The notes: generated by a model not told the origin, from the letters alone. 64,000 nucleotides of DNA from Bacilli bacterium (GCA_017626405.1 JAGAIS010000007.1:8280-72279); one strand, 5' to 3'; shown: positions 12,069 to 43,589, counted from the stretch's first letter. Numbers and translations are program-made.

Positions 12069-12578
12069 ATGGCAAGAACAGAAAAAGTTATGGATCCTAA
12101 GAAAAAACTTTTGGATGAAAAAGTTATTAACATCTCTAGAGTAACAAAAGTTACTAAAGGTGGACGTCATTTTAGATTCTCAGCTGCAATGGCTGTAGGT
12201 GACGGAAAAGGATTAGTAGGAATCGGAACAGGTAAATCTAATGAAGTACCTGAGGCAATTAAAAAAGGATTACAAGCTGCTAATAAGAACTTAGTTAAAG
12301 TTGCATTAGTAGATAATCGTACAATCCCACATGAAGCTATTGGTGTTTGTGGAAGAGCTAAAGTTTTAATTAAACCAGCTCCTAAAGGTACTGGTATTAT
12401 CGCTGGTGGTGCTGCTCGTGCAGTATTAGAACTAGCTGGAATTAAAGATATCGTTGCTAAGAGTTTAGGATCAAACACTAAAGTTAATGTTGCTAAAGCT
12501 ACTTTAGAAGCATTAAAATCAGTACGTACTGCAGAGACTATTGCAGAATTACGTGGTAAGAAAGTTGAGGAGTTATAA
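12069..12578 (+). CDS. rpsE: 30S ribosomal protein S5
   Basis: [16 protein letters not shown]...GIIAGG motifs. Confidence 0.95.
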
Positions 12579-12579
12579 T

Positions 12580-13020: not shown

Positions 13021-13022
13021 AG

Positions 13023-20415: not shown

Positions 20416-20433
20416 TTTTACAAGGAGGGTATT

Positions 20434-21198: not shown

Positions 21199-21200
21199 AT

Positions 21201-22739: not shown

Positions 22740-23915
22740 ATGATGAACAAGAGAATAATTATTACATCTTTACTATTATTAGTTTTTGTTCTTTTAAGTA
22801 TATTTTTATGCCAAAATGTAACTATTATTGAGAATAATAATAATGGCAATGACATTGATATCAAATTAGAAATAACAAAGGAAGAAACTAGTAATTCAAC
22901 ACATTCTGAAACTACTATTACTGAGATTATGAATAATTCTACTAAAACATCAACTAAAAATAATGATAGTACTACTAAAATAACTAATAAAAAGACAACT
23001 ACAACTTCAAATAATATAAAGAAAAATTTAGTAAGCTATAACGGATGGTTAAGTATTAAAAATAATACATTAGTGAATCAATATGGAGAAAAGATTCAGT
23101 TAAAGGGAATGAGTACTCACGGAATTCAATGGTTTCCTAAATATGCAAATGCTTATGTTATGAGAACATTGAGAGATGAATGGAACTCTAATTTATTTAG
23201 AATTGCTATGTATACGGAAGAAAATGGTTATATAAGTAATCCAACACTCAAAAATAAAGTAGTGGAAGTAGTAAATAATGCGATTAATCTGAATATGTAT
23301 GTAATAATTGATTGGCATATTCTAAGTGATGGAAATCCTCAAACTCATAAAAGCGAAGCTATTGCTTTCTTCAGTGAAATGAGTAGAAAATATAAAAATA
23401 ATCCTAATGTAATTTATGAAATATGTAATGAACCGAATGGAAATGTTACCTGGAATAATGATATCAAACCTTATGCCGAAGAAGTAATAGCAGCAATTAG
23501 AGCAAATTCTCCAAAATCAATTATTATTGTAGGAACTGGAACTTGGAGTCAGGATGTTGATCAAGCAGCTATGAACCCAATTAATGATTCACGTGTTATG
23601 TACGCTTTGCATTTTTATGCTGGTACTCATAAAGAATGGTTAAGAGATAGATGTTCAAATGCATTAAATAAGATACCTATCTTTGTATCTGAATGGGGAA
23701 TGAGTGATGCAAGTGGAAATGGTGGAGTTTATAAAGATGAAGCCGATAAATGGATTTCATTTATGAAAAATAATAACATATCATGGGCTAATTGGTCTCT
23801 TTGTGATAAAAACGAATCATCGGCACTTTTAAAACCGAATACTCCTTCAAATAATATAGATGACTCTTATCTATCAAAAAGTGGTATATATGTTAAACAA
23901 TATATGAAACAATAA
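22740..23915 (+). CDS. glycoside hydrolase family 5 endoglucanase (cellulase-like), N-terminally anchored with a Thr/Asn-rich linker
   Basis: GH5 catalytic motifs ICNEPNG (acid/base) and VSEWGMS (nucleophile). IIDWHIL. N-terminal TM/signal. Confidence 0.8.
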   Translation: MMNKRIIITSLLLLVFVLLSIFLCQNVTIIENNNNGNDIDIKLEITKEETSNSTHSETTITEIMNNSTKTSTKNNDSTTKITNKKTTTTSNNIKKNLVSYNGWLSIKNNTLVNQYGEKIQLKGMSTHGIQWFPKYANAYVMRTLRDEWNSNLFRIAMYTEENGYISNPTLKNKVVEVVNNAINLNMYVIIDWHILSDGNPQTHKSEAIAFFSEMSRKYKNNPNVIYEICNEPNGNVTWNNDIKPYAEEVIAAIRANSPKSIIIVGTGTWSQDVDQAAMNPINDSRVMYALHFYAGTHKEWLRDRCSNALNKIPIFVSEWGMSDASGNGGVYKDEADKWISFMKNNNISWANWSLCDKNESSALLKPNTPSNNIDDSYLSKSGIYVKQYMKQ

Positions 23916-28860: not shown

Positions 28861-29529
28861 ATGAATAACGATTTATTTTTTAAAGATTGTTTCACAGAGG
28901 TAGAAGGGGGAATAAATGCCGAGTTTAATAAAGCTACGGTAAAATGTTTTAATTCAACAAATAATGCATTTAGTATGGACTGTGATGGTAACCTAGTCGT
29001 CAATAGTATTATGACAAGAGAAGGTAATTCACAAAATATTGATATTCAAACAGTAGTTGATAAAATCTATCCAATAGGATCAATTTATATGAGTGTAAAC
29101 ACAACAAATCCAAGTACATTATTTGGTGGAACATGGGAGCAAATCAAAGATAGGTTTTTACTATGCTCAGGTGATAAATATACCAATGGATTACAAGGCG
29201 GTGAAGAGACTCATCAATTAAATATTAATGAGATTCCTAGTCATAATCATTTAGTAAATATAAATACTAGTGAAGGCGGATATCATGCTCATAATTTAAG
29301 AAGAGATATGGGAGGAGCTGAATTTGGAATAAGCGGCGGTGGTGCAACGGGTAATGCTTTACATGGTACGTGGACAAATACTAATATATGGCCTAACTCT
29401 ATTGGCGCAGCTGGTAATGGAAATCATATTCATAACGTATATGGATACACTAGTGCTAATGGAGGCAATTTAGCACATAATAATATGCCACCATACTTAA
29501 CTGTATGTGTTTGGAAAAGAGTTGCATAA
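28861..29529 (+). CDS. phage tail-collar domain protein (PF07484-like; microcystin-dependent-protein/baseplate-wedge-like)
   Basis: Motifs IYPIGSIYMS...LFGGTWEQI, GGEETHQLNINEIPSHNH and NNMPPYLTVCVWKR are the hallmark blocks of the tail-collar fold. Confidence 0.7.
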   Translation: MNNDLFFKDCFTEVEGGINAEFNKATVKCFNSTNNAFSMDCDGNLVVNSIMTREGNSQNIDIQTVVDKIYPIGSIYMSVNTTNPSTLFGGTWEQIKDRFLLCSGDKYTNGLQGGEETHQLNINEIPSHNHLVNINTSEGGYHAHNLRRDMGGAEFGISGGGATGNALHGTWTNTNIWPNSIGAAGNGNHIHNVYGYTSANGGNLAHNNMPPYLTVCVWKRVA

Positions 29530-29555
29530 AGCAGCTCTTTTATATAGGAGGAAAA

Positions 29556-32500
29556 ATGAAAGAAATAATAGAATTAAGAAAAGAAAGGGAAAAACATTAT
29601 TTAAATAATGACGGAACTGTAACTGCATATATGTATAATGAAGATATTCATTATTTAGAAAATGGTGAATATAAAGAAATCGATAATACTCTAGTAGAAG
29701 AAGATGGGTATATTACTAATAAAGCTAATAATTTTAAAATAAGACTTAATAAAAATAAATATTTAGTTAAGATAGAATTAAATGAAAAAGAATATTTGAA
29801 TATATCGTTAAGAAATGCTAATGCCGTTTCAGCTCATATTCTTAATAATGAAGTAATGTATAAAGAAATATTATCTAATATAGATATCCAATATTTAGTA
29901 CATGGGAAAACATTGAAAGAAAATATTATATTAAAAGATAAATTAAATAGTAACATTGTATTTAATATAGAAACAAATTTAGAATTAGTTATAAGTGATT
30001 CAAAAGTTCTAGCTAAAAATGGTGATAATATCATATATGTTTTTAATCCATTATTTATGATTGATGCGAAAGAACAAATAAATAATAATTGCAATTATAA
30101 ATTAACAAAATTAGAAAATGGATATGAATTAGAATTTATTCTTGATGAAAAATATTTAATTGAAGCAGAATATCCTATAGTTATAGATCCTACAGTAACT
30201 ACTGATAATTTAGAAAATGTTGAAGATATTACTTTATATTCTAGTCAACCGGATCATGCAGCTGCAAATACAAACTATTTATCAGTCGGTAGTGATGCTA
30301 ATGGTATTATGAGAACTTTATTAAAGTTTGATTTACCGAAAATAGCAACTGGGAATAATATAATTAAAGCTACTGCTTATCTAAAACATTTCGGGTCATA
30401 CATTAATGAAAACCCTAAAACTATTGGTGTGTATGAAGTAACAACTAATTGGAGTGAATCTACAGCAACATGGAATAATATGAATAATAATTATAATCCT
30501 AAAATGGAAACTTATTTAACTCCACCACAAATGGTTGATACAAATTCTTCATTTGACATAGATTTAACGAATATAGTTAAAAGATGGTATTCTGATAAAG
30601 AAAATAAAGGAATAATGTTAAAATGTTTAGATGAAAGTTATGATTCTACAATGCCATATTACTCATTTTATTCAAAAACTTATGATTATTTAAATAGTAC
30701 GACTTATCGTCCACTATTAACTATTGAATATCGTTTGCAAAATGGGCTACTAGATTATATGACTTATGAAAATGTGTCTTTTTCAATCGGCAATAGTTAT
30801 GTTAACAATTGTACCGGAAATTTTTCAAATGTAGTATCTTTGTCTGAAATATTAGACAGTACATGTTTGTTTGAAATGTCATTAACTTATAATACGCATG
30901 ATGTGATATTAAATAAGAATAATAAATTTGGGCTAGGTTTTAATATTAGTTATAATGACACTATTGAAGAAACCATAAATAAATATATGGAGAAGGAATA
31001 CAAATATACATGTTCAGATGGAACTAGTCATTATTTTTATAAATATATAAAAGAAGACGGAACCGATAGTGGGGAATACCATGATGAGGATGGTTTCTCT
31101 TTAACATTAGAAATAAAGAACGAAACTACTAAAGAATTCATTTTAAAAGACAAAAATAATAATGTATATAATTTTACAAATGGCTTTTTATCTAAAATAG
31201 AATATGCTGATAAAACTTATGTAAATATTACAAGAGATTTTGAAAATAAAATTACATCAATAAAAGATAGTAAAAATAATGAAGCAACTATCAGTTATTA
31301 TGAAAATAAAGTTATTTTTGCTAATGGAAACAAAAATATTACAATCAATATTTCTAACAATAAATTGACAAGTATAGTATGTAAAAATGGAAATCTTAGT
31401 TTTGAATATAATAGTAATTCTTTGATTTCTAAAATAATTGATACTAATGGACTTAGTATGGGTGTTGATTATTATAATATTGAACCATATAAAGTAAGTA
31501 AAATAACTGAATATGGTTTAAATAATGAAGAAGGTAAATCTAAATCTTTTGTTTATGAATTTAATTCAACAACGGTAACAGATAATCAAGACATTAAAAT
31601 GAGATATACATTTAATAATTTAGGTAATACTATTAGTACTGTTTTAATTAGTGACGATAATTCTTTAAAAAAATCTTATGGTTTTTCTAGTACATATGTA
31701 AATGAATTAAAAACACCAATAACAAATAAACCTTTAGCTTCAACTTTACCGATAAAATATGGTGAAAACCTGATTAAAAATGGTAGTTTTGAAACTGATG
31801 AAAAGAACTTCTTTACTAACTTTAGAAGTAGTGAAGATAGTTTTTCAGGAAGTTATTCAGTCAAAATAGAAAGTTATGGTTGTGCAGAGCTAGATAGAAT
31901 TCTTGAAAAAGATAAAACCTACACTTTTAGTGCATATTTTAAAAATAATGATATAATTGATATTCAAGTTTATGGTACGAGAGCAACTGGTCAAGATATA
32001 ATATACGAAGAAACTATTATGCCTAATTCTGAATTTACAAAATGCGATTTTACATTCGATGTAACTTATGGTTATTCTTGCGTAGGTTTTACAATTGACG
32101 TTAGAAATGATGGTATTGCATACATAGATGATGTGGTAATAAATGAAGGTGATGTTGCAAATAATTGCAATTTGATAGATAACTCAAATTTTGTTAAAGG
32201 TATTGATGGATGGAATGTTAGTGGAAGTATTGATGGTTCAGACGATATTGTAGCTAATCCATATGAAATTATTACTTTACCATCCAATGAAAAAGCAATC
32301 CAATTAAATAGTATTGTTAATGGTAGTGTATCGTTGTTAAAAACACTTAACATATCTGGTAAAAAAGGTGATACATTTACTTTTTCATTCTGGTATAAAA
32401 ACGAGGGAGTTCTAGATACAAGTTATAATATGGTTGGTAATTTGGTATCATTAACATTTTTTGATTCTAATTCTGAATTCGGTGAATGTATTAATAATGT

Positions 32501-35500
32501 TATTTTAAACTATCATGCTGATAATTGGCAATTTCATACAGAAACATGTATAGCTGAAAACGACTTTGATTCAATAGACATTAGAGTGTTTAGTATTTAT
32601 GAAACAAATCATTTACTTTTAACTAATTTTTCTCTTACTAGAGATTTAGGGTCTTTCTTTTATGAATACGATGAAAACGGAAATTTAATATCGACTATTT
32701 ATCCAGATAATAGTAAGATAAAAATGGCATATGATAAAAATAACCAATTACTGGGAGTCTTTGATGTTAAAGGTAATAATTACAGTTATGAATATGATAA
32801 TATAAAAACAGATAGATTATTAAAAGGAATTAGTCCGACAGGAATATCAAACGAAATAAAATATGATAGTTTTGGTAATCCTGTGAGAACTATAATAAAT
32901 AATGTTAATCCAAATGGTAATGAAATAAGTGGCGATTATTATATTCGATCAAAAGGAACAGATAAATATATTACACCTAATTTAAAAACAGGAGAGTTAT
33001 CACTAAAAAATGATACTTGTAGTCATTATTCTTTTTCAATAGTAAACCATAATGAAACTGAAACCAATACAAAAGTATATAATTTTACATCTTCTATTTT
33101 ACCAAACTATAAATTAACAAAATTAGAAGATAAAGCTATTCTTCAAAAAGATTCAACAGGCACTTATTTTGAATTAATTCAAAAAAATAATGGTTCATAT
33201 AATATTAAAGTATATAAAGAAGACTTATATCTTAAGGTAAATGAAGGTAGAATATCTTTAGCAAACCTAAAAGACACATCAGATTTTGAATTTTATTTTG
33301 AAACCACAAATTCTGATGAATTTATTGAAAATAGAGCCGAGTATACAGTTGATGGTAAACATATTACTAAAATTATAGATAGTTTAGGTAAAGAAACTAC
33401 ATATAGCATTAATAATGATACTGGATTAATAGATTATACTGTTTATCCTAATAATGAAAAATATATATATGAGTATAATGACAAAGATGAATTAATACGC
33501 TTATCTAAGGATGAAAAAAATATAAATTATACATATAGCAATCAGTTATTAAAAAGTGTGACTTCTGGAAATAAAACAGTTACATTTAATTATGATAATT
33601 TCTTAAATCCTTCTGAAATAAAAATTAATAATAAACTTTTAGTTAAAGATAATTATCAGTTTGATAAATTGACATCAAAAAATTATGGAAATGGGTCAAG
33701 TATTAAGTATTATTATGATGAATTAAATAGAATAAGTAAAGTTGAAAAAGAAGATAGAGTGTTTACATATAAATATAATAATTTAGGAACTCTAGACTCG
33801 ATAATAGATCATTCAACAAGTGGATATAATTATAGTTTAAAATTTAATTATGACTTTGCAAATAGATTATCTAATATTAAATGTAAAAATATGAGAATTG
33901 AATATGTTTATGACACATTTGGAAATATAATCCAAGAAAAAAATGCTTTAAATAATACTACTCATAATTTAGAATATAGTTTTAATCAAAATAATATATT
34001 AACCAAAATAAAGATAGATGATGATGCCATAAATTACAACTACGACAATTTAGAAAGATTAACAAGTGTAAATATAAATAATAATATAAAAACAGAATAT
34101 ACTTATAAAAAAATGGGTAAAAAATTATCTACTGTTATTAATACTATTAAAAAAGGAGAAGATCTATATCAATATTTTTATGATGAATTATACAACATTA
34201 TTAAGGTTACAAAAAATGGTAATACCAGTAAAGAATATGTTTATGACACTAATAATCAATTATTAACTGAAAATAATCATGATTTAAATATGAAGTTTAT
34301 ATATAATTATGATTCTGAAGGAAATATAACTTCAAAAAAAATCTTCAATTTAGAAGATAATACGTTAATTAAAGAGGACACATATGCTTATTCAAATGTT
34401 GAATGGGAAGACGAATTAACTAGCTTTAATAATGAAAATATATGTTATGATGACATCGGAAATCCAATAAGCATTGGAAATAAAACATTAAATTGGGAAA
34501 ATGGAAAAGAATTAAAATCGTATTGCGATGATATAAATACATTTGAATATTCATATAATGTTGCTGGTTTTAGAACAAATAAAAAGATTAATAATAAATT
34601 AATTGAATACTATTTAGATGATGATAAGGTTTTATTTGAATATAGCGATGATTATGTGTTATACTTCATGTATGATGATAATGATAATTTGATTGGATTT
34701 AAGAAAAACGACCAAACTTATTACTACAATAAAAATTATCAAAATGATATTATTGGAATTTATGATAATAATTATAATGAAGTTGTTAAGTATAACTATG
34801 ATTCATGGGGAAAATTAGTTTCTATTTTGGATGCTAATAATAAAGAAATTATAGATAAAAACAACATAGGAATGATAAATCCATTTAGATACAGAAGTTA
34901 TTATTATGATCAAGAAACAGGTTTATATTATTTAAATAGTAGATATTATAATCCAGAATGGGGAAGATTTATTAATTCTGATAAGATTGCTTTTTCGAGC
35001 AATGGATTATTTGGAATAAACTATTACTTATATGCTAATAATAATCCAATTAATTATATTGATTCGAATGGTGATTTCCCTTTTGCTATACCAGTGCTTG
35101 GCGCAGCAGAAATAGCCGCAGGGTTTGTTTTAGCTGCTACACTAATCTATGCTACTGCAAAAGCTATACAAAGTGTCGGTCCCATTTCGATTGATTTAGA
35201 TCTAAACGTAAGTACTCCTCCTAAAAAGGAAAAAAAATCAAAGAAAAAAAATGATAAAGATGGTAAAAATTGTTATATATATGGATTATATAATGGTACT
35301 AAAATTGAGTATGTTGGAAGAACATATGATTTGAAAGTTAGAGAAGCTCAGCATAAGCGAACTATTAGAAAAGACTTAGAAATGCATAAAATTCATACAA
35401 CTACATCATATGAAGATTGTCGAGCATACGAGCAATACTATATTGAAAAATATAAAACGCTGAATAGAGTGATAAAAAAATCGGAAAGAATTAACAATCA

Positions 35501-35588
35501 AAGAAACGGCGTGGCAATAGATTCTCCATTCTATAGAGATTATGTTAGACCATTGAAAACAGTTTATGGAGAAACATACGTAGGATAA
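29556..35588 (+). CDS. Rhs/YD-repeat polymorphic toxin (2010 aa) with two CBM_4_9-like modules, RHS core and a C-terminal GIY-YIG nuclease-like toxin domain; no signal peptide
   Basis: ATG 29556 follows TAGGAGG. NLIKNGSFE / NLIDNSNFVKGIDGW CBM-like motifs. Many YD repeats (YDxxGN, YxYD). RHS core end PFRYRSYYYDQETGLYYLNSRYYNPEWGRFINSD. Putative autoproteolysis region IDSNGDFPF. C-terminal CYIYGLYNGTKIEYVGRTYDLKVREAQHKR...N matches the GIY-x10-YxG...R...H...N nuclease motif. Confidence 0.85.
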   Translation: MKEIIELRKEREKHYLNNDGTVTAYMYNEDIHYLENGEYKEIDNTLVEEDGYITNKANNFKIRLNKNKYLVKIELNEKEYLNISLRNANAVSAHILNNEVMYKEILSNIDIQYLVHGKTLKENIILKDKLNSNIVFNIETNLELVISDSKVLAKNGDNIIYVFNPLFMIDAKEQINNNCNYKLTKLENGYELEFILDEKYLIEAEYPIVIDPTVTTDNLENVEDITLYSSQPDHAAANTNYLSVGSDANGIMRTLLKFDLPKIATGNNIIKATAYLKHFGSYINENPKTIGVYEVTTNWSESTATWNNMNNNYNPKMETYLTPPQMVDTNSSFDIDLTNIVKRWYSDKENKGIMLKCLDESYDSTMPYYSFYSKTYDYLNSTTYRPLLTIEYRLQNGLLDYMTYENVSFSIGNSYVNNCTGNFSNVVSLSEILDSTCLFEMSLTYNTHDVILNKNNKFGLGFNISYNDTIEETINKYMEKEYKYTCSDGTSHYFYKYIKEDGTDSGEYHDEDGFSLTLEIKNETTKEFILKDKNNNVYNFTNGFLSKIEYADKTYVNITRDFENKITSIKDSKNNEATISYYENKVIFANGNKNITINISNNKLTSIVCKNGNLSFEYNSNSLISKIIDTNGLSMGVDYYNIEPYKVSKITEYGLNNEEGKSKSFVYEFNSTTVTDNQDIKMRYTFNNLGNTISTVLISDDNSLKKSYGFSSTYVNELKTPITNKPLASTLPIKYGENLIKNGSFETDEKNFFTNFRSSEDSFSGSYSVKIESYGCAELDRILEKDKTYTFSAYFKNNDIIDIQVYGTRATGQDIIYEETIMPNSEFTKCDFTFDVTYGYSCVGFTIDVRNDGIAYIDDVVINEGDVANNCNLIDNSNFVKGIDGWNVSGSIDGSDDIVANPYEIITLPSNEKAIQLNSIVNGSVSLLKTLNISGKKGDTFTFSFWYKNEGVLDTSYNMVGNLVSLTFFDSNSEFGECINNVILNYHADNWQFHTETCIAENDFDSIDIRVFSIYETNHLLLTNFSLTRDLGSFFYEYDENGNLISTIYPDNSKIKMAYDKNNQLLGVFDVKGNNYSYEYDNIKTDRLLKGISPTGISNEIKYDSFGNPVRTIINNVNPNGNEISGDYYIRSKGTDKYITPNLKTGELSLKNDTCSHYSFSIVNHNETETNTKVYNFTSSILPNYKLTKLEDKAILQKDSTGTYFELIQKNNGSYNIKVYKEDLYLKVNEGRISLANLKDTSDFEFYFETTNSDEFIENRAEYTVDGKHITKIIDSLGKETTYSINNDTGLIDYTVYPNNEKYIYEYNDKDELIRLSKDEKNINYTYSNQLLKSVTSGNKTVTFNYDNFLNPSEIKINNKLLVKDNYQFDKLTSKNYGNGSSIKYYYDELNRISKVEKEDRVFTYKYNNLGTLDSIIDHSTSGYNYSLKFNYDFANRLSNIKCKNMRIEYVYDTFGNIIQEKNALNNTTHNLEYSFNQNNILTKIKIDDDAINYNYDNLERLTSVNINNNIKTEYTYKKMGKKLSTVINTIKKGEDLYQYFYDELYNIIKVTKNGNTSKEYVYDTNNQLLTENNHDLNMKFIYNYDSEGNITSKKIFNLEDNTLIKEDTYAYSNVEWEDELTSFNNENICYDDIGNPISIGNKTLNWENGKELKSYCDDINTFEYSYNVAGFRTNKKINNKLIEYYLDDDKVLFEYSDDYVLYFMYDDNDNLIGFKKNDQTYYYNKNYQNDIIGIYDNNYNEVVKYNYDSWGKLVSILDANNKEIIDKNNIGMINPFRYRSYYYDQETGLYYLNSRYYNPEWGRFINSDKIAFSSNGLFGINYYLYANNNPINYIDSNGDFPFAIPVLGAAEIAAGFVLAATLIYATAKAIQSVGPISIDLDLNVSTPPKKEKKSKKKNDKDGKNCYIYGLYNGTKIEYVGRTYDLKVREAQHKRTIRKDLEMHKIHTTTSYEDCRAYEQYYIEKYKTLNRVIKKSERINNQRNGVAIDSPFYRDYVRPLKTVYGETYVG

Positions 35589-35624: not shown

Positions 35625-36659
35625 ATGGAAAATAAAAAAACTTTAATGAATTGTGAACATGGAGATACATTTGCTCTAAGAATAGTTTCAAATCAAGAAT
35701 ATAAAGATAGATATTTGATTTTTATTAGGTTTGAAACTGATTTATATGAAGATGAAAAAAATTCTAATGATACAAGTAAGCTTTTTCGAGTTAAACTCAC
35801 TAAAAATAAAGAACTTCCAAAAAGTTTTGAAGAGTTAGAGGAACTACCTTATATTATTTGTAAAATAACTTGTTATGCAAAGAGATATTGGCCATTAGAT
35901 TCTGATATGGAATATAAAGAGATAGTAGAAAAATATAAAAATGTAAAATATTATCCGGACAAATACAATTATTTATATTCATATTTGCTTATCTTGAGTG
36001 ATTATAGATGCAAAAGATATGTAAAAAACTACGTCTATTTAGGGAATTTTTCTCTAACTCCACCAGAAAAAGAATACTTTCCAGTTGATATATTTGGTAA
36101 CGTTTTTCTTCTTATAGATGATTTAGAAAGATATTGTTTGAAAAGCTATCATGAGCATAATTTGAAAAAAGGAAAAGAATATTCTGAAGAAGCCGCAAAA
36201 GAAAACAACGCTTATGCGGAGGAAGAAGTGAAAATTCAAATGGAACTTCATAATAATATAAGAAAAAGAAATAACAAAATTTTAATAACTTCAATATCTG
36301 GATGGGGAACGGGACTATATGATTGTGATACAGCGTTGGATATGAGAGATGATTATCAAAGGTATTTATTAGAATATGATTATAAAGAAGTTTTAATATT
36401 AATGAAAAAGCAATATAAAGATTTTTTAAACGATAGAGAAGAAAAAACAATATTTTGGATGGTTATTGCTGATCAAGAAATAAAAAGAAAGATACTTATT
36501 CCTGAAGTAAAAGAAAAAGCGTTAAAGTCTATAGAAGATAATTTAATTATTTGGAAAGAATTAGATCCTAAGAATTATAATATTAGAAAACAAAAATTGT
36601 ATGGATTAAAAAAAAGAATCAACGATTTTAAAAATGCTAACATAAAAAGAGATTTTTGA
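35625..36659 (+). CDS. putative cognate immunity protein of the Rhs GIY-YIG toxin (344 aa, possibly two fused immunity domains)
   Basis: Immediately downstream of the toxin gene. Cytoplasmic. C-terminal GWGTGLYDCDTALDMRDDY block resembles a DUF4259-type immunity motif (from memory). Confidence 0.5.
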   Translation: MENKKTLMNCEHGDTFALRIVSNQEYKDRYLIFIRFETDLYEDEKNSNDTSKLFRVKLTKNKELPKSFEELEELPYIICKITCYAKRYWPLDSDMEYKEIVEKYKNVKYYPDKYNYLYSYLLILSDYRCKRYVKNYVYLGNFSLTPPEKEYFPVDIFGNVFLLIDDLERYCLKSYHEHNLKKGKEYSEEAAKENNAYAEEEVKIQMELHNNIRKRNNKILITSISGWGTGLYDCDTALDMRDDYQRYLLEYDYKEVLILMKKQYKDFLNDREEKTIFWMVIADQEIKRKILIPEVKEKALKSIEDNLIIWKELDPKNYNIRKQKLYGLKKRINDFKNANIKRDF

Positions 36660-36687
36660 AAACATCTCTTTTTTATATGGAGGAACT
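36646..36687 (+). terminator. hairpin + TTTTTTATATGGAGGAA junction motif, copy 1 (terminator-like; overlaps the immunity gene stop)
   Basis: AAAGAGAT-loop-ATCTCTTT then TTTTTATATGGAGGAACT. Nearly identical to the sequence at 41963-42004. Confidence 0.55.
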
Positions 36688-36804
36688 ATGAGATACGAAA
36701 TGAATAATATCAAACATTGTCCAATTAAAGGGGTTACAGCAGTCACTGTAACCTCTAAATTTGGACCAAGAACATTTTACAATAGAGTAGAAGGATGCGA
36801 TTAA
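36688..36804 (+). pseudogene. duplicated 5' fragment (38 codons) of the M23 peptidase gene found intact at 42005
   Basis: MRYEMNNIKHCPIKGVTAVTVTSKFGPRTFYNRVEGCD* vs MRYKMNNIKHCPIKGVTAVTVTSKFGPRRFYNRVEEKYESGHH. About 95% nt identity over about 130 bp, then divergence and a stop. Confidence 0.8.
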
Positions 36805-37322
36805 ATGTGAAGAAGAAATTATACTATAATATTGTATGCTATGATGTTTTAATAATAATGATATATGCAGTTGCAGGTATAGCTTTTTTCTTTGCATTTA
36901 ATACATTTATTGGTTTATTTACAATTATTCCAATTGTATTGGAATCGAAAAGATTAGTAAAAAACATTCAAAATATACCTTTAGTTATAGAAAAAACTGA
37001 AAATGGAATCATACTATATGAAAGTTCAAACGTTATTTTAACTGATAAGTCTTTGATTAGCCTAAAAAGATACATTTTTTCTATTGACTATCTTAATATT
37101 AACGATATTTATATAAGCAATGAATATTTTATATATGAACATGCACAAAACTTATGTTTACTTTCTAATGAAAATAAAAAATATAAAATTGTGTATATAT
37201 ATACTCTTTATTCACTTTTAACATATAAGCATGAAATAAAACAAATTCTAGAAATAATAAAAACATATAATAAAAATATTGAACTATATGGCAAAATAAA
37301 AGAAATATATGAAAAAGAATAG
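36795..37322 (+). CDS. hypothetical membrane protein (possible orphan immunity protein)
   Basis: 175 aa, N-terminal TM pair. Located between the M23 fragment and the orphan rhs-CT. Confidence 0.4.
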   Translation: MRLNVKKKLYYNIVCYDVLIIMIYAVAGIAFFFAFNTFIGLFTIIPIVLESKRLVKNIQNIPLVIEKTENGIILYESSNVILTDKSLISLKRYIFSIDYLNINDIYISNEYFIYEHAQNLCLLSNENKKYKIVYIYTLYSLLTYKHEIKQILEIIKTYNKNIELYGKIKEIYEKE

Positions 37323-37355
37323 TAATGGTTCAAGAAAAATGATTATAGTGGTTCA

Positions 37356-38393
37356 TTGATAGGATTTAAATATAATAATGAAATATACTATTATCAAAAG
37401 AACTATCAAAATGATATAACAGGAATCTATGATAGTAGTTATAACTTAGTGGTAATATATAAATATAATGGATGGGGTAAAGTATTATCAGTAGTAGATA
37501 ATACAACAAATAATATAGGAAGTATAAATCACTTCAGATATAGAAGTTATTATTATGATGAAGAGACAAGTTTATATTATTTAAATAGCAGATATTATAA
37601 TCCAAAATGGTGTAGATTTATAAATGCCGATGGAATAATAGGAGCAAACCAAGATATCTATAGTTATAATCTATACTTATATTCAAGCAATAATCCAATA
37701 AAAAATTATGATTCTGAAGGAAAATCTATATTTGGTGCCATAGCTATTTGTGGTATAATTGGTGCTGCATTGAATGTTGCTCCAACATTTATAGGGGATG
37801 TAGCGAAATCTATAAAGAACAAAAAGGTAACATACTCAGGATGGAAAGCATATGCATCTGGAGCTATAGGAGGCGCAGTAGGTGGCGCAGTTGGATATTT
37901 ATGTCCGGGAGCATATTTTGCACCAATAGTTGCTTCATCATTAACAACATCTGTTTCAAATTCTCTTTTTAATAAAAAAGACCTGGATAAAACAGTAGAA
38001 ACCGCTCTAAGTGATGTAATTATAGATACAACAGTTGGAAGATTAACGAAGAATATAAAGATTCCTAAAATAAACTCTGGGAAAAATAGTTTTGCATCAG
38101 TTTTTAAGTCTGGTATAACAAAACTTAATAAAAAAACTGTAAAAAATATGTCGTTAAAAGTAATTGCAAAAGGTGTAACTTCAGAAAGTGTTTCATCTTC
38201 AATTGACTCGTCAATAGCATATTATCCAAAAAAAATAGTTGAGGATCTAAAAGAACAATCAAATGTAGTAGTTAAAGATAATGACTATGTTAGTAATTGT
38301 ATTGAGTGTTCAAACCCATCACATAATTACCCAACACTAATCCATAATGATAATAGAAATGATTATTATTGTTTATGTGTTAAGTGGGATTAG
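37356..38393 (+). CDS. orphan rhs C-terminal toxin module (RHS core end + glycine-zipper/Cys-rich toxin domain), TTG start, no ATG
   Basis: LIGFKYNNEIYYYQKNYQNDITGIYD...HFRYRSYYYDEETSLYYLNSRYYNPKWCRFINADGI is homologous to residues about 1715-1830 of the main Rhs. Divergent CT with GAIGGAVGGAVG glycine zipper and C-terminal CxxC...YYCLCVKWD. Confidence 0.75.
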   Translation: MIGFKYNNEIYYYQKNYQNDITGIYDSSYNLVVIYKYNGWGKVLSVVDNTTNNIGSINHFRYRSYYYDEETSLYYLNSRYYNPKWCRFINADGIIGANQDIYSYNLYLYSSNNPIKNYDSEGKSIFGAIAICGIIGAALNVAPTFIGDVAKSIKNKKVTYSGWKAYASGAIGGAVGGAVGYLCPGAYFAPIVASSLTTSVSNSLFNKKDLDKTVETALSDVIIDTTVGRLTKNIKIPKINSGKNSFASVFKSGITKLNKKTVKNMSLKVIAKGVTSESVSSSIDSSIAYYPKKIVEDLKEQSNVVVKDNDYVSNCIECSNPSHNYPTLIHNDNRNDYYCLCVKWD

Positions 38394-38447
38394 ATTATTA
38401 TTTGACTAAAATAATTATATAAAATATAATTAAAGTGGTGATATACT

Positions 38448-39242
38448 ATGGAAAGTACAAAATTTTTATTATTTGTAGGTATTATATTTTTGTTAGGGTT
38501 TATCATTGCTTTATTAAAAAGTATATATAAAGACATTAAAAAATATAAGAGTTTTGATGTTACAAATGTGAATGCAAAAATATATTATGAGCGTCAGCAA
38601 TGCAAAGAAAAAATTATCACTATGATAATAGGGCTTATTATTGTAATCGCATTTTTTCTTTATTGTATAATTAATCTCCCTAAAAAAATAGTTGGTACCT
38701 ATGATAACAATTATATGATAGAAAAATGTCAAATTGTCGATTATATAGAAAAACCAAAAGGAGCTTATAACGAAATGAGTTGCCATAGTGATAACTTTGA
38801 TATTACCAATGATTCTTTTGTAAACAAAAGTGGCGAGGAATTTTACTACGATGATATTGGCAAATACGCTTGTATAAAGTATTACCCAGATATGTATGTT
38901 GTTGAAATTATGAAAATAAGTGACAATGAGAACCTTATATGTGATAATTTTTATTGGCCAGGAAAAAACATCAACGATAAAACAAATTATAACTATTCGG
39001 TTATAAAATGTAATATTAAAAAGAATGATAATGGAAAAATTAATTGTGTATATGGATCAAATTTAAAAATAAATAATGTGACTTTACTTAACGAAAAAGA
39101 CATTAAAGAAAAAAGTCACGTTTGTCTAAAATACTATTGGGATAATAATACTGGTAAAATACTATATGTTAATGATACTAATAAAAACTTTAACTGCGAT
39201 AGATATTTAAAAACAGAAGAAGAAAAAGATAAAAAAGAATAG
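38448..39242 (+). CDS. putative immunity protein A (two-TM membrane protein with Cys-containing domain), cassette 1
   Basis: Follows the orphan toxin. Paralogous to 40433-41251 (shared blocks GTYDNNYMI, YACIKYYP, ICLKYYW..NTGKIL). Confidence 0.55.
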   Translation: MESTKFLLFVGIIFLLGFIIALLKSIYKDIKKYKSFDVTNVNAKIYYERQQCKEKIITMIIGLIIVIAFFLYCIINLPKKIVGTYDNNYMIEKCQIVDYIEKPKGAYNEMSCHSDNFDITNDSFVNKSGEEFYYDDIGKYACIKYYPDMYVVEIMKISDNENLICDNFYWPGKNINDKTNYNYSVIKCNIKKNDNGKINCVYGSNLKINNVTLLNEKDIKEKSHVCLKYYWDNNTGKILYVNDTNKNFNCDRYLKTEEEKDKKE

Positions 39243-39253
39243 AGATAAAGTTT

Positions 39254-39832
39254 ATGAGTGAAATATTTTTAAGATTTATACAAATTGGAGCAATGTGTAT
39301 ATCAATTTCTTTTATTGCTAAGATTACATCATCTAAAAATTTTAATGATATAAAAACAAAAAATGGATATTCATCAAAAAAAATTAAAGGTTATATCTCT
39401 TCTGATTTAGATGGGTATAAAAAAATTGTATTCGTATTATCTTTAATATTCTTTTTGTTAACAATCTATTTTTTAACTATTTATTTTCTAAAAATAAATG
39501 GCTATATAGTAGTACAAGAAAGCGAAAAAAATAATTCATTAAAAATAGCGTGCTTGATGTTTATTATATTTTTATTTAATTATTATATATTCATTTATAC
39601 ATCAAAAAGCAAGATATATTTTAATGATCAAGAAATTATAAAGTACAGGTTAATTGGAAAAAAACAAGTATTAAAATTTAGCGATATAGAAAAAGTTGTT
39701 GCTACACCAACCTCTAAATTAATATTGTATTCAAAAAATAATAGATTGGTTTTTGAATTAGAAAAATCAAATAGTAATAAGTTTATTGCACTACTTGCGA
39801 AAAAAGGGATAGATATTAATTACAAAATGTAA
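39254..39832 (+). CDS. putative immunity protein B (membrane protein with bacterial-PH-like C-terminus), cassette 1
   Basis: Paralogous to 41278-41835 (IYFN..EIIKYR.IG..Q.LKFSD..KV). Confidence 0.5.
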   Translation: MSEIFLRFIQIGAMCISISFIAKITSSKNFNDIKTKNGYSSKKIKGYISSDLDGYKKIVFVLSLIFFLLTIYFLTIYFLKINGYIVVQESEKNNSLKIACLMFIIFLFNYYIFIYTSKSKIYFNDQEIIKYRLIGKKQVLKFSDIEKVVATPTSKLILYSKNNRLVFELEKSNSNKFIALLAKKGIDINYKM

Positions 39833-39848
39833 AAAAATCTTAATGCAT

Positions 39849-39884
39849 AGGAGATATATTAAAAATATATCTCCTTTATATATG
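39849..39884 (+). terminator. hairpin + TTTATATATGGTGGAA junction motif, copy 2
   Basis: AGGAGATATATT-AAA-AATATATCTCCT perfect 12-bp stem, then TTTATATATGG. Confidence 0.55.
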
Positions 39885-40393
39885 GTGGAACGACCTCGTT
39901 ATTACCATTTGGCGGTGTAATTTCTATAGCATCTTCATCTATTGCTGAGTCAGTTACTACATCACTATTTGATAAAAAAAATGTAAAAGAGACTGCCGAA
40001 TACGCTTGTAACAATTTAGTTGAAGATTTAACAACAGGATTAGTATCATCCCTTATAAAAATTCCAGGATTAAATGCAGGAAGAAATAGTTATAATGCTG
40101 TTTTTAAATCTGGAATAACTAAAATATCTAAAAATACAGCTGCAAAAATATCTTTTAAAGTAATAGCTAAAGGAGTTGCAGTAGAAAGTTTTGGTACATT
40201 TACTACTGAAATACTCAAAAAAGGTTATGAAGTTTTAACTAAAGAACTTCCTAAAAATCCACAGCAGGCTGTTAATAATGAAGATAATAATCATAATAGA
40301 ATAGAATGTTGCAATCTTACACAAAACTATCCAACATTAGCTCATAGTAATACACAAGATAATTATTATTGCTTATGTGCTAGATGGGATTAA
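39863..40393 (+). pseudogene. 5'-truncated orphan toxin C-terminal fragment (homologous to the CT of 37356-38393), no start codon
   Basis: Open frame ...GGTTSLLPFGGVISIASSSIAESVTTSLFDKK...NAGRNSYNAVFKSGITKISKNT...CCNLTQNYPTLAHSNTQDNYYCLCARWD* aligns with ...FAPIVASSLTTSVSNSLFNKK...NSGKNSFASVFKSGITKLNKKT...NYPTLIHNDNRNDYYCLCVKWD*. Confidence 0.7.
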
Positions 40394-40432
40394 TTTAGTA
40401 TCTATATAGCATTTATTGACTTATTAATATGA

Positions 40433-41251
40433 TTGGAATATACTAAAATTGGTGATAAGATGGTTGAAAACAAGTTTTTAATAGTTATAATTTTGATTGT
40501 AATACCTGCTTTTTTAATATATTTTTGTGTTTGCTTTTATAAGCTATTAAAAAAGTTAAAAAAATTGAAAAAGTCTATGGAATCAGATAAAAAAAATCTT
40601 AAGATTTATAGTGAATATCAACGACATAAATATAGCGTAATTGCTTATGTTATTTTGATGCCAATTGTTTTTATATTATTAATTTATGGTTTTTTAGATA
40701 ATTCTAAAAGGCTTACAGGTATTTATGATAATAATTATATGATTCAAAAATGTGAGATAACAGAAGTGGATGAAGGTAGGTCACGTGCTGATAAAATAAG
40801 TTGTAAGAATGAAAATTTTTATACAAAGTATACAGTTGTTGAATATGGAGATTTAGATTACGAAGATGAAAGAAAATATGCTTGTATAAAGTATTATCCA
40901 AATGTGGAAGTAGCAGAAGTATTAAGAATAGATAACAAGGACAATTTATCCTGTGAAGAATTTTATTGGTCAAAAGAAAATGATAAATCAACTAATCTTA
41001 ATTATTCAGTTTTAAAATGTGATGTAAATGCTATTAATAGCAATATAATAGATTGTTCTATTGAATCTAGTACAAAAATATCCAATATAAAAATAGAAAA
41101 TGAAAAAAATATAAAAGAAAAAGATGGTATTTGCTTAAAATACTATTGGAGTGATAATACAGGAAAAATATTGGAAGTTAATCAATCTAATGAAAACTTT
41201 AGTTGTGATAAGTATATAAAACAGGAAGAAACTAAAGATAATACGAACTAG
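40433..41251 (+). CDS. putative immunity protein A', cassette 2
   Basis: Paralog of 38448-39242. Confidence 0.55.
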   Translation: MEYTKIGDKMVENKFLIVIILIVIPAFLIYFCVCFYKLLKKLKKLKKSMESDKKNLKIYSEYQRHKYSVIAYVILMPIVFILLIYGFLDNSKRLTGIYDNNYMIQKCEITEVDEGRSRADKISCKNENFYTKYTVVEYGDLDYEDERKYACIKYYPNVEVAEVLRIDNKDNLSCEEFYWSKENDKSTNLNYSVLKCDVNAINSNIIDCSIESSTKISNIKIENEKNIKEKDGICLKYYWSDNTGKILEVNQSNENFSCDKYIKQEETKDNTN

Positions 41252-41277
41252 TTTTTAAAATAAGCAGGAGTTAATCT

Positions 41278-41835
41278 ATGGATAGAATATTTATAAGATT
41301 TTTAGAAATATCATGTAGTTGTTTTTTATGGGTTGCAACCTTTAAGTTAGGGAAATGGATACTTACAGTAAAAAGGAAGAATAATTTCTTAGTTACTAAA
41401 AATAAGAAAGATTATGTAAGCATTAGCAATGATCGTTATAAAGGAGTATTATTTGTTGTTTTAATTATTGCTCTTATACCTTCTTTATTTTTTACTATAA
41501 GTGGACTATTAGGTGTTAAAGATGTTGAAGGTAATAATGTAATATTTATAGCAATGGTATTTTGGGTAATAGTATTTTTATCTTTAATTTTATTAATTTA
41601 TTATTTTCGATGCAAAATATATTTCAATAATGATGAAATTATCAAATATCGTTTTATCGGACATAGACAAAAATTAAAGTTTTCTGATGTAAAAAAAGTC
41701 ATGGTTAAACCACTATCAGGTATAGTATTGTATTCAGAAAATGGTAAATTAAAAGTGGACTATGACAATCCTAATGCCAGTAAATTAGTCTCTATACTAG
41801 AAAAGAAAGGTTTCATTGTTAACTATAAAATATAA
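41278..41835 (+). CDS. putative immunity protein B', cassette 2
   Basis: Paralog of 39254-39832. Confidence 0.5.
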   Translation: MDRIFIRFLEISCSCFLWVATFKLGKWILTVKRKNNFLVTKNKKDYVSISNDRYKGVLFVVLIIALIPSLFFTISGLLGVKDVEGNNVIFIAMVFWVIVFLSLILLIYYFRCKIYFNNDEIIKYRFIGHRQKLKFSDVKKVMVKPLSGIVLYSENGKLKVDYDNPNASKLVSILEKKGFIVNYKI

Positions 41836-41962: not shown

Positions 41963-42004
41963 AGAGATATACTATAAAATATCTCTTTTTTATATGGAGG
42001 AATT
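41963..42004 (+). terminator. hairpin + TTTTTTATATGGAGGAA junction motif, copy 3, immediately upstream of the intact M23 gene RBS
   Basis: AGAGATAT-ACTATAAA-ATATCTCT then TTTTTTATATGGAGGAATT ATG. Confidence 0.55.
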
Positions 42005-42649
42005 ATGAGATACAAAATGAATAATATTAAACACTGTCCAATTAAAGGGGTTACAGCAGTCACTGTAACCTCTAAATTTGGACCAAGAAGATTTTACAAT
42101 AGAGTAGAGGAGAAATATGAATCTGGACATCATAATGGAATTGATATAATTGGTGGAGATACCATTGTTGCTGCTTATGATGGGGTAGTTACTAAAACTA
42201 GAAATGGAGTAAAAGGATATTCAACTAAAAACTCGTGTGGTAATTATGTTACTATCGATCATGGCAATGGGTATACTACTGTTTACTATCATTTAAAACT
42301 AGATTCAATCAAAGTAAAAAAAGGGGATCGTGTTATTGCTGGTCAAGAAATAGGTTTAATGGGAAATACAGGACATTCAATATCTAAACACTTACACTAT
42401 GGAATTAAAAGAAATAATGTATGGATTAACCCGGAGCCATTTCTTAACAATACAAAAAATATTGAAAATACTAGTAATATAAAAGAAACTAATAATAAAG
42501 AAATAATATATGTCGTAAAAAAGGGTGATAATTTAACTAAAATAGCTAAAAAATATAATACTACTTGGAAAGCAATTTATAAAAAAAACAAGGAACTTAT
42601 TGGGGATAATCCCAATCTTATACTTGTTGGATGGAAATTAAAAATATAA
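42005..42649 (+). CDS. M23 family metallopeptidase with C-terminal LysM domain (peptidoglycan endopeptidase, endolysin-like)
   Basis: HxxxD (HHNGIDI) and HLH (HLHYGI) M23 motifs. C-terminal LysM (YVVKKGDNLTKIAKKYNTTWKAIYKKN). No signal peptide. Confidence 0.8.
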   Translation: MRYKMNNIKHCPIKGVTAVTVTSKFGPRRFYNRVEEKYESGHHNGIDIIGGDTIVAAYDGVVTKTRNGVKGYSTKNSCGNYVTIDHGNGYTTVYYHLKLDSIKVKKGDRVIAGQEIGLMGNTGHSISKHLHYGIKRNNVWINPEPFLNNTKNIENTSNIKETNNKEIIYVVKKGDNLTKIAKKYNTTWKAIYKKNKELIGDNPNLILVGWKLKI

Positions 42650-43017
42650 TTGATTTAAAAATAATAGCAAGTACGTTTATTTTTTTAGTTGGTGGTTTTG
42701 ATAATATGTTTATTACTCTTTTAATTTTTATTGCTCTTGATTATATAACAGGTATAATTAAAGCAATTTATCAAAAAAAATTAAATAGCAAATTGGGATT
42801 AAAAGGATTTTTAAAAAAATTAGGTTATATTTTGATAGTAATAGTTGCAAGTTTATTTGATTCAATTATAGGAGATAAACAAATGGCGATAAGAACATTA
42901 TGCATATATTTTTTTATATCTAACGAAGCCATTTCAATACTTGAAAATTGGGCAGTTATGGGCCTTCCTCTTCCGAAAAAGATATTTCAAGTGTTTGAAT
43001 CTTTAAAAGAAGAATAA
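42631..43017 (+). CDS. TcdE/phage_holin_4_1-family holin-like protein (toxin-secretion/lysis holin)
   Basis: 3-TM, 128 aa. Blocks KIIASTFIFLVGGFDNMFITLLIFIALDYITGIIKA and NEAISILENWAVMGLP are characteristic of this holin family. Overlaps the M23 gene end by 19 nt. Confidence 0.65.
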   Translation: MEIKNIIDLKIIASTFIFLVGGFDNMFITLLIFIALDYITGIIKAIYQKKLNSKLGLKGFLKKLGYILIVIVASLFDSIIGDKQMAIRTLCIYFFISNEAISILENWAVMGLPLPKKIFQVFESLKEE

Positions 43018-43021
43018 ATGT

Positions 43022-43050
43022 TGACTAAGTTGAAAAAAAGGGTTAATATA
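43022..43050 (+). promoter_or_regulatory. sigma-A-type promoter (TTGACT-17-TAATAT) for the regulator gene
   Basis: -35 at 43022-43027, -10 at 43045-43050. Confidence 0.45.
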
Positions 43051-43079
43051 TACAACCAAGTAGTTTAAGAGGTGATTAT

Positions 43080-43589
43080 ATGATTGATTCAATTTCAGCT
43101 AAGGACTTTGTTGAATTACCAGATATTATGTTAGATAAATCTAAGAATGTAAAATATATTCAACTATTAAGTGAGAATACAATAGATGACTATTACTATT
43201 CAAATTTGCGAAAAGATTTAGAAGTTATATTTAATAAGTTCAAAGATTCTAAATATCTTATACATTATCAAAATGACTATAACTTAAAATCTAATCCTTT
43301 TGAAATTAATAGAAATACCAATAGAATTAATGATAAAGTAGGAAACTATATTGAGAAAAAATTAGATCTAAGTATTTGGTCAAAAGATCTTTATAACATC
43401 TTAATCAATCTATCCGAAGAACTGACAATAAAGGAGACAATATATTTAACTTCTACATTCTTTGATAATAAAACAGAAGAAGAAATAGAAGAACTAATGG
43501 ATATTTCAAGAAAAATGTTATATAAAATAAAAAAGAGTTGTCTAGTAAAATTAAGATTAGAATTTTCAAAATATAATTTAATTGATTAG
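43080..43589 (+). CDS. small sigma-70 region-4-like / ArpU- or TcdR-like transcriptional regulator (hypothetical)
   Basis: 169 aa. C-terminal EEEIEELMDISRKMLYKIKKSCLVKLR resembles a sigma region-4 HTH. Located next to the holin. Confidence 0.35.
   Translation: MIDSISAKDFVELPDIMLDKSKNVKYIQLLSENTIDDYYYSNLRKDLEVIFNKFKDSKYLIHYQNDYNLKSNPFEINRNTNRINDKVGNYIEKKLDLSIWSKDLYNILINLSEELTIKETIYLTSTFFDNKTEEEIEELMDISRKMLYKIKKSCLVKLRLEFSKYNLID

Follow-up and report, generated by a model that had tools for sequence, protein, structure and literature searches.

Introduction

Membrane-depolarising polymorphic toxins are known from type VI secretion systems (T6SS; Tse5), contact-dependent inhibition (CDI) and type VII secretion systems (T7SS; TspA, TelE and EsxX), and glycine-zipper membrane toxins, which include TelE, EsxX, CdzC/D and the CDI ionophores, form a recognised functional class. 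To our knowledge, the tips of Gram-positive RHS proteins that have been studied are almost only of the nuclease type. Here we describe an array of orphan toxin tips downstream of a large RHS toxin gene in an uncultured, low-GC Bacilli bacterium. The DNA analysed (GCA_017626405.1, JAGAIS010000007.1:8280-72279; 64,000 nucleotides, one strand, hereafter the window) has a GC content of ~25%, and the region in question is a storehouse of spare toxin–immunity cassettes. The tips make up a sizeable new family that lacks annotation but belongs to a known kind of weapon, and they are probably channel-forming or depolarising membrane toxins; their interest lies mainly in annotation and in what appears to be a dual, two-faced immunity.

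Tse5 (RhsP1, PA2684) of the Pseudomonas aeruginosa H1-T6SS is an Rhs-borne pore-former that is paired with Tsi5, a two-transmembrane (2-TM) immunity protein (PMC9637101). Its encapsulated C-terminal RHS tip of ~150 aa, which bears TM and amphipathic helices and no enzymatic signature, inserts into the membrane and depolarises it, and is countered by a small 2-TM immunity protein, a design that resembles the one considered here. Tse5, however, depends on a Gram-negative T6SS with PAAR/VgrG, whereas the window host is a monoderm member of the Bacilli with no T6SS; the window moreover has two immunity genes per tip and a Cys-rich tail. Sequence similarity to Tse5 was not detected, although this is a weak test, the deposited Tse5 tip chain being possibly absent from the PDB set.

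Two Gram-positive systems offer a second comparison. In the TelE/TipE system of Streptococcus gallolyticus, Gly-to-Val changes in the zipper abolish toxicity (PMC10434224), and the extracellular toxicity of EsxX from Staphylococcus aureus ST398 is blocked only by ExiC and ExiD together (PMC12744356). TelE and EsxX, which are likewise polymorphic, combine a helical C-terminal domain with a glycine zipper that is essential, and they depolarise or permeabilise the membrane. A further resemblance to the window is that non-producers keep orphan immunity genes and that EsxX, when it acts from outside, is countered by two membrane proteins jointly. Unlike the window tips, both toxins are delivered by LXG/T7SSb rather than by RHS, and their zipper lies at the extreme C-terminus, whereas in the window it forms part of helix 2, close to where the tip begins. 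The immunity proteins of these systems are cytoplasmic (DUF5085) or 6-TM membrane proteins (DUF5079/DUF5080), as opposed to the window proteins, which have 2-3 TM segments and either an ecto-domain rich in Cys or a PH-like domain. A Pfam scan of the four downstream window proteins revealed no DUF5085, DUF5079 or DUF5080, and LXG (PF04740) was absent from the window proteins and from the non-RHS members of the family even at E ≤ 1. Given these absences and the lack of demonstrable homology to the precedents, we file the tips as putatively working like these toxins and not as members of their families; from TelE and EsxX they were set apart by domain content.

The ionophoric CdiA-CT toxins of the E. 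coli EC93 group, which are neutralised by membrane CdiI immunity proteins (PMC11630599), are likewise small helical polymorphic tips with a putative glycine zipper; they occur in many divergent groups, and their integral-membrane immunity proteins contact the toxin. They differ in their CdiB/CdiA two-partner secretion, their Gram-negative hosts and their use of receptors such as AcrB. In its architecture, the locus resembles RHS/WapA-type orphan arrays (the 'displacement' model), in which an rhs 3' core, an alternative tip and an immunity gene follow the main gene and are swapped between strains. It departs from them in that a duplicated 144-nt stretch from the 5' end of an M23 peptidase gene delimits the array and that the junctions carry a repeated 2-TM gene, p175.

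Results and discussion

RHS tips with a conserved glycine zipper

The window holds one complete orphan tip, CT1, and the remnant of another, CT2:

37356..38393, + strand: orphan 1, a truncated rhs 3' fragment of 345 aa with a TTG start (open reading frame comprising an RHS-associated core tail and a complete toxin tip)
37728..38393, + strand: toxin tip CT1, 221 aa (AlphaFold2 (AF2) model, family profile and conservation table)
38058..38174, + strand: conserved polar motif of CT1, KIPKINSGKNSFASVFKSGITKLNKKTVKNMSLKVIAKG (conservation across the family)
38298..38390, + strand: clade-specific Cys block of CT1, CIECSNPSHNYPTLIHNDNRNDYYCLCVKWD (invariant in a 4-sequence alignment)
39863..40393, + strand: tip remnant CT2, 176 codons, start-less (truncated inside the glycine zipper)
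39849..39875, + strand: terminator-like hairpin where cassette 1 meets remnant 2 (stem of 12 bp, then a T-rich tail)

Residues 37-122 of orphan 1 correspond to the Rhs_assc_core model (TIGR03696; E = 5.7e-16, 58.8 bits against a cut-off of 32.5), and this core tail ends in the P-x4-D-x2-G cleavage motif NNPIKNYDSEGKS immediately before the variable tip. A glycine-rich stretch, AYASGAIGGAVGGAVGYLCPGAYFAPIVASS, is encoded at nt 37848-37940. The AF2 model of CT1, built with 35 family sequences, was all-helical (pLDDT 69 overall, 85-94 for the first hairpin, i.e., the first 60 aa), with helices at residues 2-31 (nt 37731-37820), 39-58 (the glycine zipper, nt 37842-37901), 62-81, 83-109, 122-134 and 143-178; the Cys-rich C-terminal tail was predicted to be disordered and had low pLDDT. 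Helices 1–3 are uncharged and rich in small residues (G+A+S+T 40-60%).

CT2 is homologous to CT1 (42% identity over 146 aa, E = 1e-38), and both end in the common block IEC.N...NYPTL.H......YYCLC..WD. The sequence-only reading had proposed this Cys block for both tips, in agreement with our alignment, and had further described both tips as domains with a glycine zipper. The zipper is indeed present in orphan 1, but CT2 turned out to be a truncated remnant: its frame starts inside the hairpin and contains no ATG, GTG or TTG start, neither the cleavage motif nor an RHS core precedes the tip, and helix 1 and the GGAVGG zipper core are missing, so that only the distal zipper part, GGTTSLLPFGGVISIASS, is kept.

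While a word-index homology search with a single tip returned two close relatives only, an exhaustive profile search over 1.84 billion representatives (E ≤ 1e-3, clusters at 50% identity) yielded 263 cluster representatives, 47 of them at E ≤ 1e-10, all from gut, rumen or digester metagenomes and metagenome-assembled genomes. The matches span helix 1 to the KG motif of the polar region. The domain was C-terminal in every match (median of 8 aa after it), and its carriers are for the most part RHS proteins of 1500-2400 aa or rhs fragments. Where at least 120 residues precede the domain, an RHS core motif lay directly upstream in about half of the matches, seven had an unannotated helical N-terminus, and the longest were RHS proteins. 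From these sequence data, the family is best described as a widespread, unannotated group of ~170-aa, all-helical C-terminal toxin domains.

Conservation was assessed in 71 full-length members. The best-conserved element is S-x-W-x-x-Y-x-G-x3-GG-x2-GG: S37 (96%), W39 (86%) and Y42 (97%) precede the zipper glycines G44, G48, G49 and G53 (92-97%), and D24 is conserved in 96%. A GxxxGxxxG-type pattern ((G/A/S)xxxGxxxG) was found in helix 2 of 65 of the 71 members. The second conserved region is polar, with the consensus K-I-x-G-[IV]-T-x-G-R-N-S-x3-V-[FY]-K-S-G-[LI]-T-K ... M-S-x-K-[VT]-x2-K-G (G118 97%, T131 89%, K132 85%, K148 93%, G149 90%). No conservation of His, Cys or Glu of a catalytic type was seen in these members. 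The exact Cys block, presented earlier as conserved, is confined to a small clade, being reached by 3 of 150 family hits (P0003, P0004 and P0016); C-terminal cysteines as such are enriched throughout the family, however, with at least one Cys in the last 15 residues of 52 of 148 members (4.7% expected, a ~9-fold enrichment of Cys). YYCLC..WD, YWC[AT]P and C[PL]xxG recur as end motifs.

Searches for known homologues of the tip were negative throughout. In orphan 1, no Pfam-A family matched the tip at E ≤ 1, toxin, Ntox/Tox and Gly-zipper models included, and the tip region of 17 other members was equally free of Pfam models. Neither single tips nor 4- and 35-sequence profiles gave a meaningful match in Pfam, NCBIfam or PDB sequences, and the family profile found nothing among PDB chains at E ≤ 10 except a chance match to FimH; for Tse5, the chain listed in entry 8cp6 is a 1121-aa shell fragment. 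Foldseek comparison of the tip model with the PDB returned generic helical membrane proteins only (best E = 2.2), which we judged meaningless. Profile and fold searches thus place the tips in no cytoplasmic enzyme family, an assignment that would have spoken against the envelope-directed toxin proposed by the sequence-only reading.

Several further members of the family deserve mention. P0017, P0025, P0033, P0089, P0110, P0125 and the toxins of two tandem cassettes at nt 1-2357 of locus L032 carry a helical N-terminal domain of ~170-230 aa in place of the RHS part, giving proteins of ~350-430 aa; besides the lack of LXG, this domain matched no other Pfam or NCBIfam model, and it may be a new trafficking domain. 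In L031 (1135-9863), a 1620-aa RHS protein (DUF6531 and RHS) with a family tip is encoded directly after four WXG100 genes and a gene for an FHA-domain protein and is apparently linked to a T7SS; the gene that probably confers immunity to it (173 aa, 2 TM) precedes the toxin gene instead of following it. By tblastn, the family had no match in plasmids and one in a phage collection, L033 (MT837118.1, 'Bacteriophage sp.', unverified), a 7.7-kb faecal contig with an RHS orphan bearing a family tip, a class II immunity gene (see below) and an IS110-like transposase; this contig is probably bacterial DNA mislabelled as phage.

Membrane proteins as probable immunity partners

As had been claimed from the sequence, two membrane-protein genes accompany the window tips. 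One pair lies behind each tip, and the two pairs are homologous, with products of 264/272 aa (ImmA) and 192/185 aa (ImmB):

38448..39242, + strand: ImmA1, 264 aa, 2 TM (hydropathy, charge counts, internal repeat)
39254..39832, + strand: ImmB1, 192 aa, three hydrophobic helices and a PH-like domain (hydropathy; weak EbsA and DUF6560 matches)
40433..41251, + strand: ImmA2, 272 aa, architecture as in ImmA1 (hydropathy, homology, repeat)
41278..41835, + strand: ImmB2, 185 aa, 3 TM and a PH-like domain (DUF6560 near-match, AF2, Foldseek)

ImmA, which had been taken for a polytopic membrane protein, has instead two TM segments and a Cys-rich two-repeat domain: a short N-terminus is followed by TM1, a loop with 8-11 Lys/Arg, TM2 and a domain of ~185 aa with eight Cys. 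According to the positive-inside rule, the basic loop is predicted to be cytoplasmic and the Cys-rich domain to lie outside. The ecto-domain is made up of two tandem units of ~85 aa with four conserved Cys each (z ~7, a value reached by 0 of 500 shuffles). ImmA2 is homologous to single-repeat proteins that are the putative sole immunity proteins of the related loci L018 and L008 (BLASTP against L018, E = 4e-4; both included by jackhmmer), and jackhmmer also matched ImmA1 to the L018 protein.

ImmB1 and ImmB2 are 39% identical, and their K-rich C-terminal domain is predicted to face inside. ImmB2 aligns to positions 8-161 of the 174 in the DUF6560 model (PF20197), an uncharacterised Pfam family that it and the L032 immunity proteins resemble, yet its score remains below the gathering threshold (E = 2.1e-5, 25.2 bits against 27.8); ImmB1 scored 16.7 bits. 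P0175, which is identical to ImmB2, carries a precomputed PF20197 annotation, although the signal is weak or faint in other annotation listings. An AF2 model of ImmB from three sequences, of moderate confidence (pLDDT 63-83), showed three helices, six strands (114-160) and a helix at 167-176. Its top Foldseek matches in the PDB were the ARAP2/3 PH, FERM-PH and Spt16/Pob3 PH domains (probability 0.99-1.0, E 0.016-0.03), supporting a PH-like fold of the C-terminal domain in line with the sequence-only reading.

Related loci show a comparable arrangement. In 17 of 19 loci from species-representative genomes, found with a 7-sequence alignment, a protein of 75-240 aa with 2-3 predicted TM segments starts within ~30 nt of the toxin stop; in the other two, a 2-3-TM protein follows after an inserted element. 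Their hosts belong to the Lachnospiraceae, Ruminococcaceae, Oscillospiraceae, Christensenellaceae, Erysipelotrichaceae, Acholeplasmataceae, 'Tenericutes' and Bacilli. The same downstream pattern was present in L003, L006, L032 (two cassettes) and L033, and L008 has two membrane-protein genes after the toxin. By all-against-all BLASTP, the downstream proteins fall into at least five unrelated classes that track the type of toxin tail, for example:

Tail ...YWC[AT]P: class I immunity (3 TM and a beta-rich domain), the commonest class
Tail ...DGYYGxKQ..YD: class II immunity (2 TM and an 'IGASSDC' domain)
Tail ...W.xYFxGxK..GY[DV]L: class IV immunity

This covariation suggests that the conserved N-terminal helices constitute the killing module, while the variable last helix and the tail would be the part recognised by the immunity proteins. 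ImmB is collinear with the class I proteins and shares their 3TM plus PH-like architecture as well as a weak DUF6560 signal. In L032, two tandem family toxins are each followed by a gene for a DUF6560-like 2-TM immunity protein, and the DUF6560 signal is weak in L009. To judge from these sequence comparisons, the two immunity-type membrane proteins of a window cassette are of different kinds, and either one resembles a class that occurs elsewhere on its own.

Since one membrane protein follows the toxin in nearly all relatives, it might be asked whether only one of the two downstream proteins confers immunity, most likely ImmA, homologues of which are detectable in that position, or else ImmB as in class I loci, the other being accessory or unrelated. 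The weakness of the link between ImmB and class I would fit the former version. On the other hand, the A-B pair is intact in the window and in six other loci (L001 and L026-L030), even where the toxin is missing; the ImmB architecture is that of the commonest immunity class, and DUF6560-like proteins flank the two family toxins in L032; two membrane-protein genes follow the toxin in L008; and an obligate pair has a precedent in ExiC and ExiD (PMC12744356). We regard a single immunity protein as a real though minor possibility; it concerns a detail and is compatible with a membrane toxin that is neutralised at the membrane.

Tip swapping and retention of immunity genes

The main gene that precedes the orphans is the source of the shell and delivery part that an orphan tip would need:

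29505..35588, + strand: main rhs gene, 2027 aa (RHS_repeat, YD_repeat and Rhs_assc_core models)

Its own tip gave a GIY-YIG match below threshold (E = 0.0019) and is followed by a 344-aa protein without a TM segment. The contrast drawn earlier with a main GIY-YIG toxin and its cytoplasmic immunity protein is thus borne out for the neighbouring protein, and less firmly for the nuclease assignment. DNA comparison revealed a repeat of 71-85% identity between orphan 1 (37339-37631) and the 3' core of the main rhs gene (34672-34982).

A syntenic 204-kb metagenome scaffold, L001, presents the cassettes in exchanged roles. Its main RHS protein (2062-2079 aa) carries CT2, with the intact zipper KAVGGAVGGATSLLPFGG and a tip ending in YYCLCARWD (corresponding to P0003), followed by near-identical ImmA2 and ImmB2, while both the CT1 cassette and the GIY-YIG tip are orphans there. 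CT2 is a dead remnant in the window strain and an active tip in its sister strain, and the swap shows that stored tips are used. The junction sequence after ImmB1 in L001 is the same as the hairpin junction of the window. A further locus, L028, has other tips; the CT1 toxin is absent there and ImmA1 is shortened, yet ImmB1, ImmA2 and ImmB2 are all retained. Across the window, L001 and L026-L030, the A-B pair stays together even with the toxin lost or truncated. Tip exchange in L001 and immunity retention in L028 indicate that the locus behaves as a classical RHS tip-swapping array with kept immunity genes. The two comparison loci also contain other tips, namely a 289-aa orphan with an unannotated tip in L001 (13207-14076) and an Ntox44 tip (200 aa) in L028 (4521-5786), which is followed by a 199-aa protein.

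These data bear on the question of whether the orphan region is mere debris, i.e., decaying pseudogene tips with hitch-hiking membrane-protein genes. CT2 as found in the window, start-less and truncated, does fit this description, and orphan 1 has a TTG start, no obvious ribosome-binding site in its upstream sequence and no RHS shell. CT1, however, is full length and recurs in other strains with 76-90% identity, ImmA and ImmB are intact, and ImmB2 is 100% identical on 15 contigs. The best promoter-like sites of the + strand lie just upstream of ImmA1 (38402-38430) and ImmA2, and the L001 swap puts a stored tip into use. Decay is therefore true of remnant 2 only, and as an account of the whole region it is very improbable.

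Proposed mode of action

The conserved zipper, the membrane proteins encoded downstream of the tips and the immunity genes retained in L028 are comparative evidence in favour of the envelope- or membrane-targeting toxin with membrane immunity that had been proposed from the window alone. Encapsulation and cleavage of the tip are established for RHS/Tc-type shells. By the sequence of events that we propose, a stored tip would be moved onto the main gene by homologous recombination at the 71-85% identical rhs core repeat; the tip would then be enclosed in the RHS shell and cleaved at the P-x4-D-x2-G motif, and the freed tip would reach a neighbouring cell. There, the helical hairpins would enter the cytoplasmic membrane from outside, and packing of the zippers would give rise to an ion-conducting oligomer with loss of the membrane potential. 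Sibling cells would be shielded by the ImmA and ImmB proteins encoded after each tip, ImmA with its twice-repeated, disulfide-type domain on the outer face and ImmB with its PH-like domain on the inner face. Both most likely bind the variable C-terminal helix and tail of the toxin in or at the membrane and stop insertion or oligomerisation.

Several observations weigh against this interpretation. Homology to a validated pore-former was not detectable, the AF2 tip model is of moderate quality and its helical Foldseek matches are meaningless, and the link between ImmB and class I is weak (hhalign probability 30%, P = 5e-4; BLASTP not significant). Only helix 1 exceeds the standard TM hydropathy threshold, the zipper helices having a mean Kyte-Doolittle value of 0.8-1.0. 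In addition, the domain is polar and basic in its second half, where the motif G-R-N-S...K-S-G-x-T-K...K-G is strongly conserved and could be a binding or catalytic site. Finally, the main, nuclease-like tip also starts with a hydrophobic helix, FPFAIPVLGAAEIAAGFVLAATLIYATAKAI, followed by a K-rich linker (window 35070-35200, aa ~1860-1895), and the GIY-YIG orphan of L001 has the same layout. In the main tip, this helix may allow a nuclease that acts in the cytoplasm to enter through the membrane. Such helices can thus serve entry and not killing, and a hydrophobic helix alone is not diagnostic.

Taken further, this leads to a scheme in which the zipper helices are no more than an anchor or entry module, while the conserved polar half is the effector at the membrane surface, either an enzyme or a tight binder of an envelope precursor such as lipid II or a lipid head group. 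Conservation of the polar motif equals that of the zipper (G118 97%, K148 93%), the GIY-YIG-like main tip has its N-terminal hydrophobic helix too, and an outside-facing immunity domain such as that of ImmA is also typical against extracellular toxins that attack cell-wall precursors. In the T6SS toxin Tde1, a glycine zipper is reported to function in translocation and not in killing (PMC10240207). An effector of this kind would have to be accommodated in only ~60-70 residues, predicted to form two helices, which display no conserved His, Cys, Glu or Asp of the hydrolase type and match no enzyme family or fold. Moreover, the immunity proteins of relatives mostly have an even number of TM segments and K-rich loops, followed by a soluble domain of very diverse fold; this layout and its diversity fit recognition of a membrane-embedded toxin better than occlusion of an active site. 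We therefore deem a polar effector unlikely and favour the channel-forming or depolarising toxin.

A wider proposal, which we advance tentatively and consider somewhat doubtful, is that the tips belong to a large, unrecognised channel-forming family of the Firmicutes, delivered by RHS proteins and in some cases linked to T7SS, in which a constant zipper pore is combined with a hypervariable, often Cys-ended C-terminal helix and tail that would confer specificity, and in which at least five unrelated classes of membrane immunity proteins would have evolved against this part. At the locus at hand, neutralisation would require two of them together, ImmA with its disulfide-rich repeats from outside and ImmB with its PH-like domain from inside. 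Irrespective of its scope, naming the tip family would annotate hundreds of 'hypothetical' RHS tips. A link between DUF6560 and immunity against this toxin family would be new and would provide a first functional context, as immunity proteins, for DUF6560 and several small TM classes. The covariation of tail and immunity class, along with the outside/inside pair, would also make a tractable system for studying how membrane proteins neutralise a pore-former.

Array boundaries and flanking genes

The orphan array occupies the segment 36792-41964, which is bracketed by two direct repeats:

36648..36791, + strand: left 144-nt direct repeat, duplicating the 5' end of the M23 peptidase gene and the sequence ahead of it (92% identical to 41965-42108)
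41965..42108, + strand: right 144-nt direct repeat, located where the M23/LysM peptidase gene really starts (DNA repeat comparison)
36795..37322, + strand: p175, a 2-TM protein (element of the repeated junction module preceding orphan cassettes)

Copies of the M23 5' end recur at cassette junctions together with a p175/p149 2-TM gene, in L001 at 9333-9449 and 12488-12616, and p175-type genes precede two orphans of that scaffold (9440-9889 and 12646-13095). The location of these copies indicates that cassettes were seemingly added by recombination that took in the start of the downstream gene. We also asked whether p175 might be a third protein conferring immunity to these tips; it showed no similarity to ImmA, ImmB or the other immunity classes, and this role was rejected in view of its belonging to the repeated junction module.

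At the N-terminus of the main RHS protein (window 29505-30800), a CBM96/DNRLRE domain was matched with E = 2.9e-13 and 2.6e-27, and DUF7948 scored just below the cut-off. These domains suggest, on the basis of such matches, binding to carbohydrates or the cell surface rather than a known secretion signal; a signal peptide was not evident in the protein. At its start, the main rhs gene overlaps with a gene (window 28861-29529) whose product contains the C-terminal domain of the phage baseplate protein Gp10 (E = 3.4e-22) and which is also conserved in L001. This product may act together with the RHS protein as its partner or adaptor, and no further phage structural genes were found nearby.

Further upstream (18844-23915), the window encodes a PilC-like T2SSF protein, an A24 prepilin peptidase, a DUF2207 membrane protein and a GH5 cellulase. 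An interpretation of the locus as a prophage was rejected, as the upstream genes are of type IV pilus, GH5 and acyltransferase types and the phage-like elements are restricted to Gp10_C, M23/LysM and the holin.

Directly after the array (42005-43589) lie genes for an M23 peptidase with LysM, a Phage_holin_4_1 holin and a 169-aa, weakly sigma-70-like protein, a trio that is conserved in L001, L026 and L028. It is reminiscent of the clostridial toxin loci (TcdE/TcdL/TcdR), in which export is assisted by a holin and an endolysin and a sigma factor is dedicated to the system.

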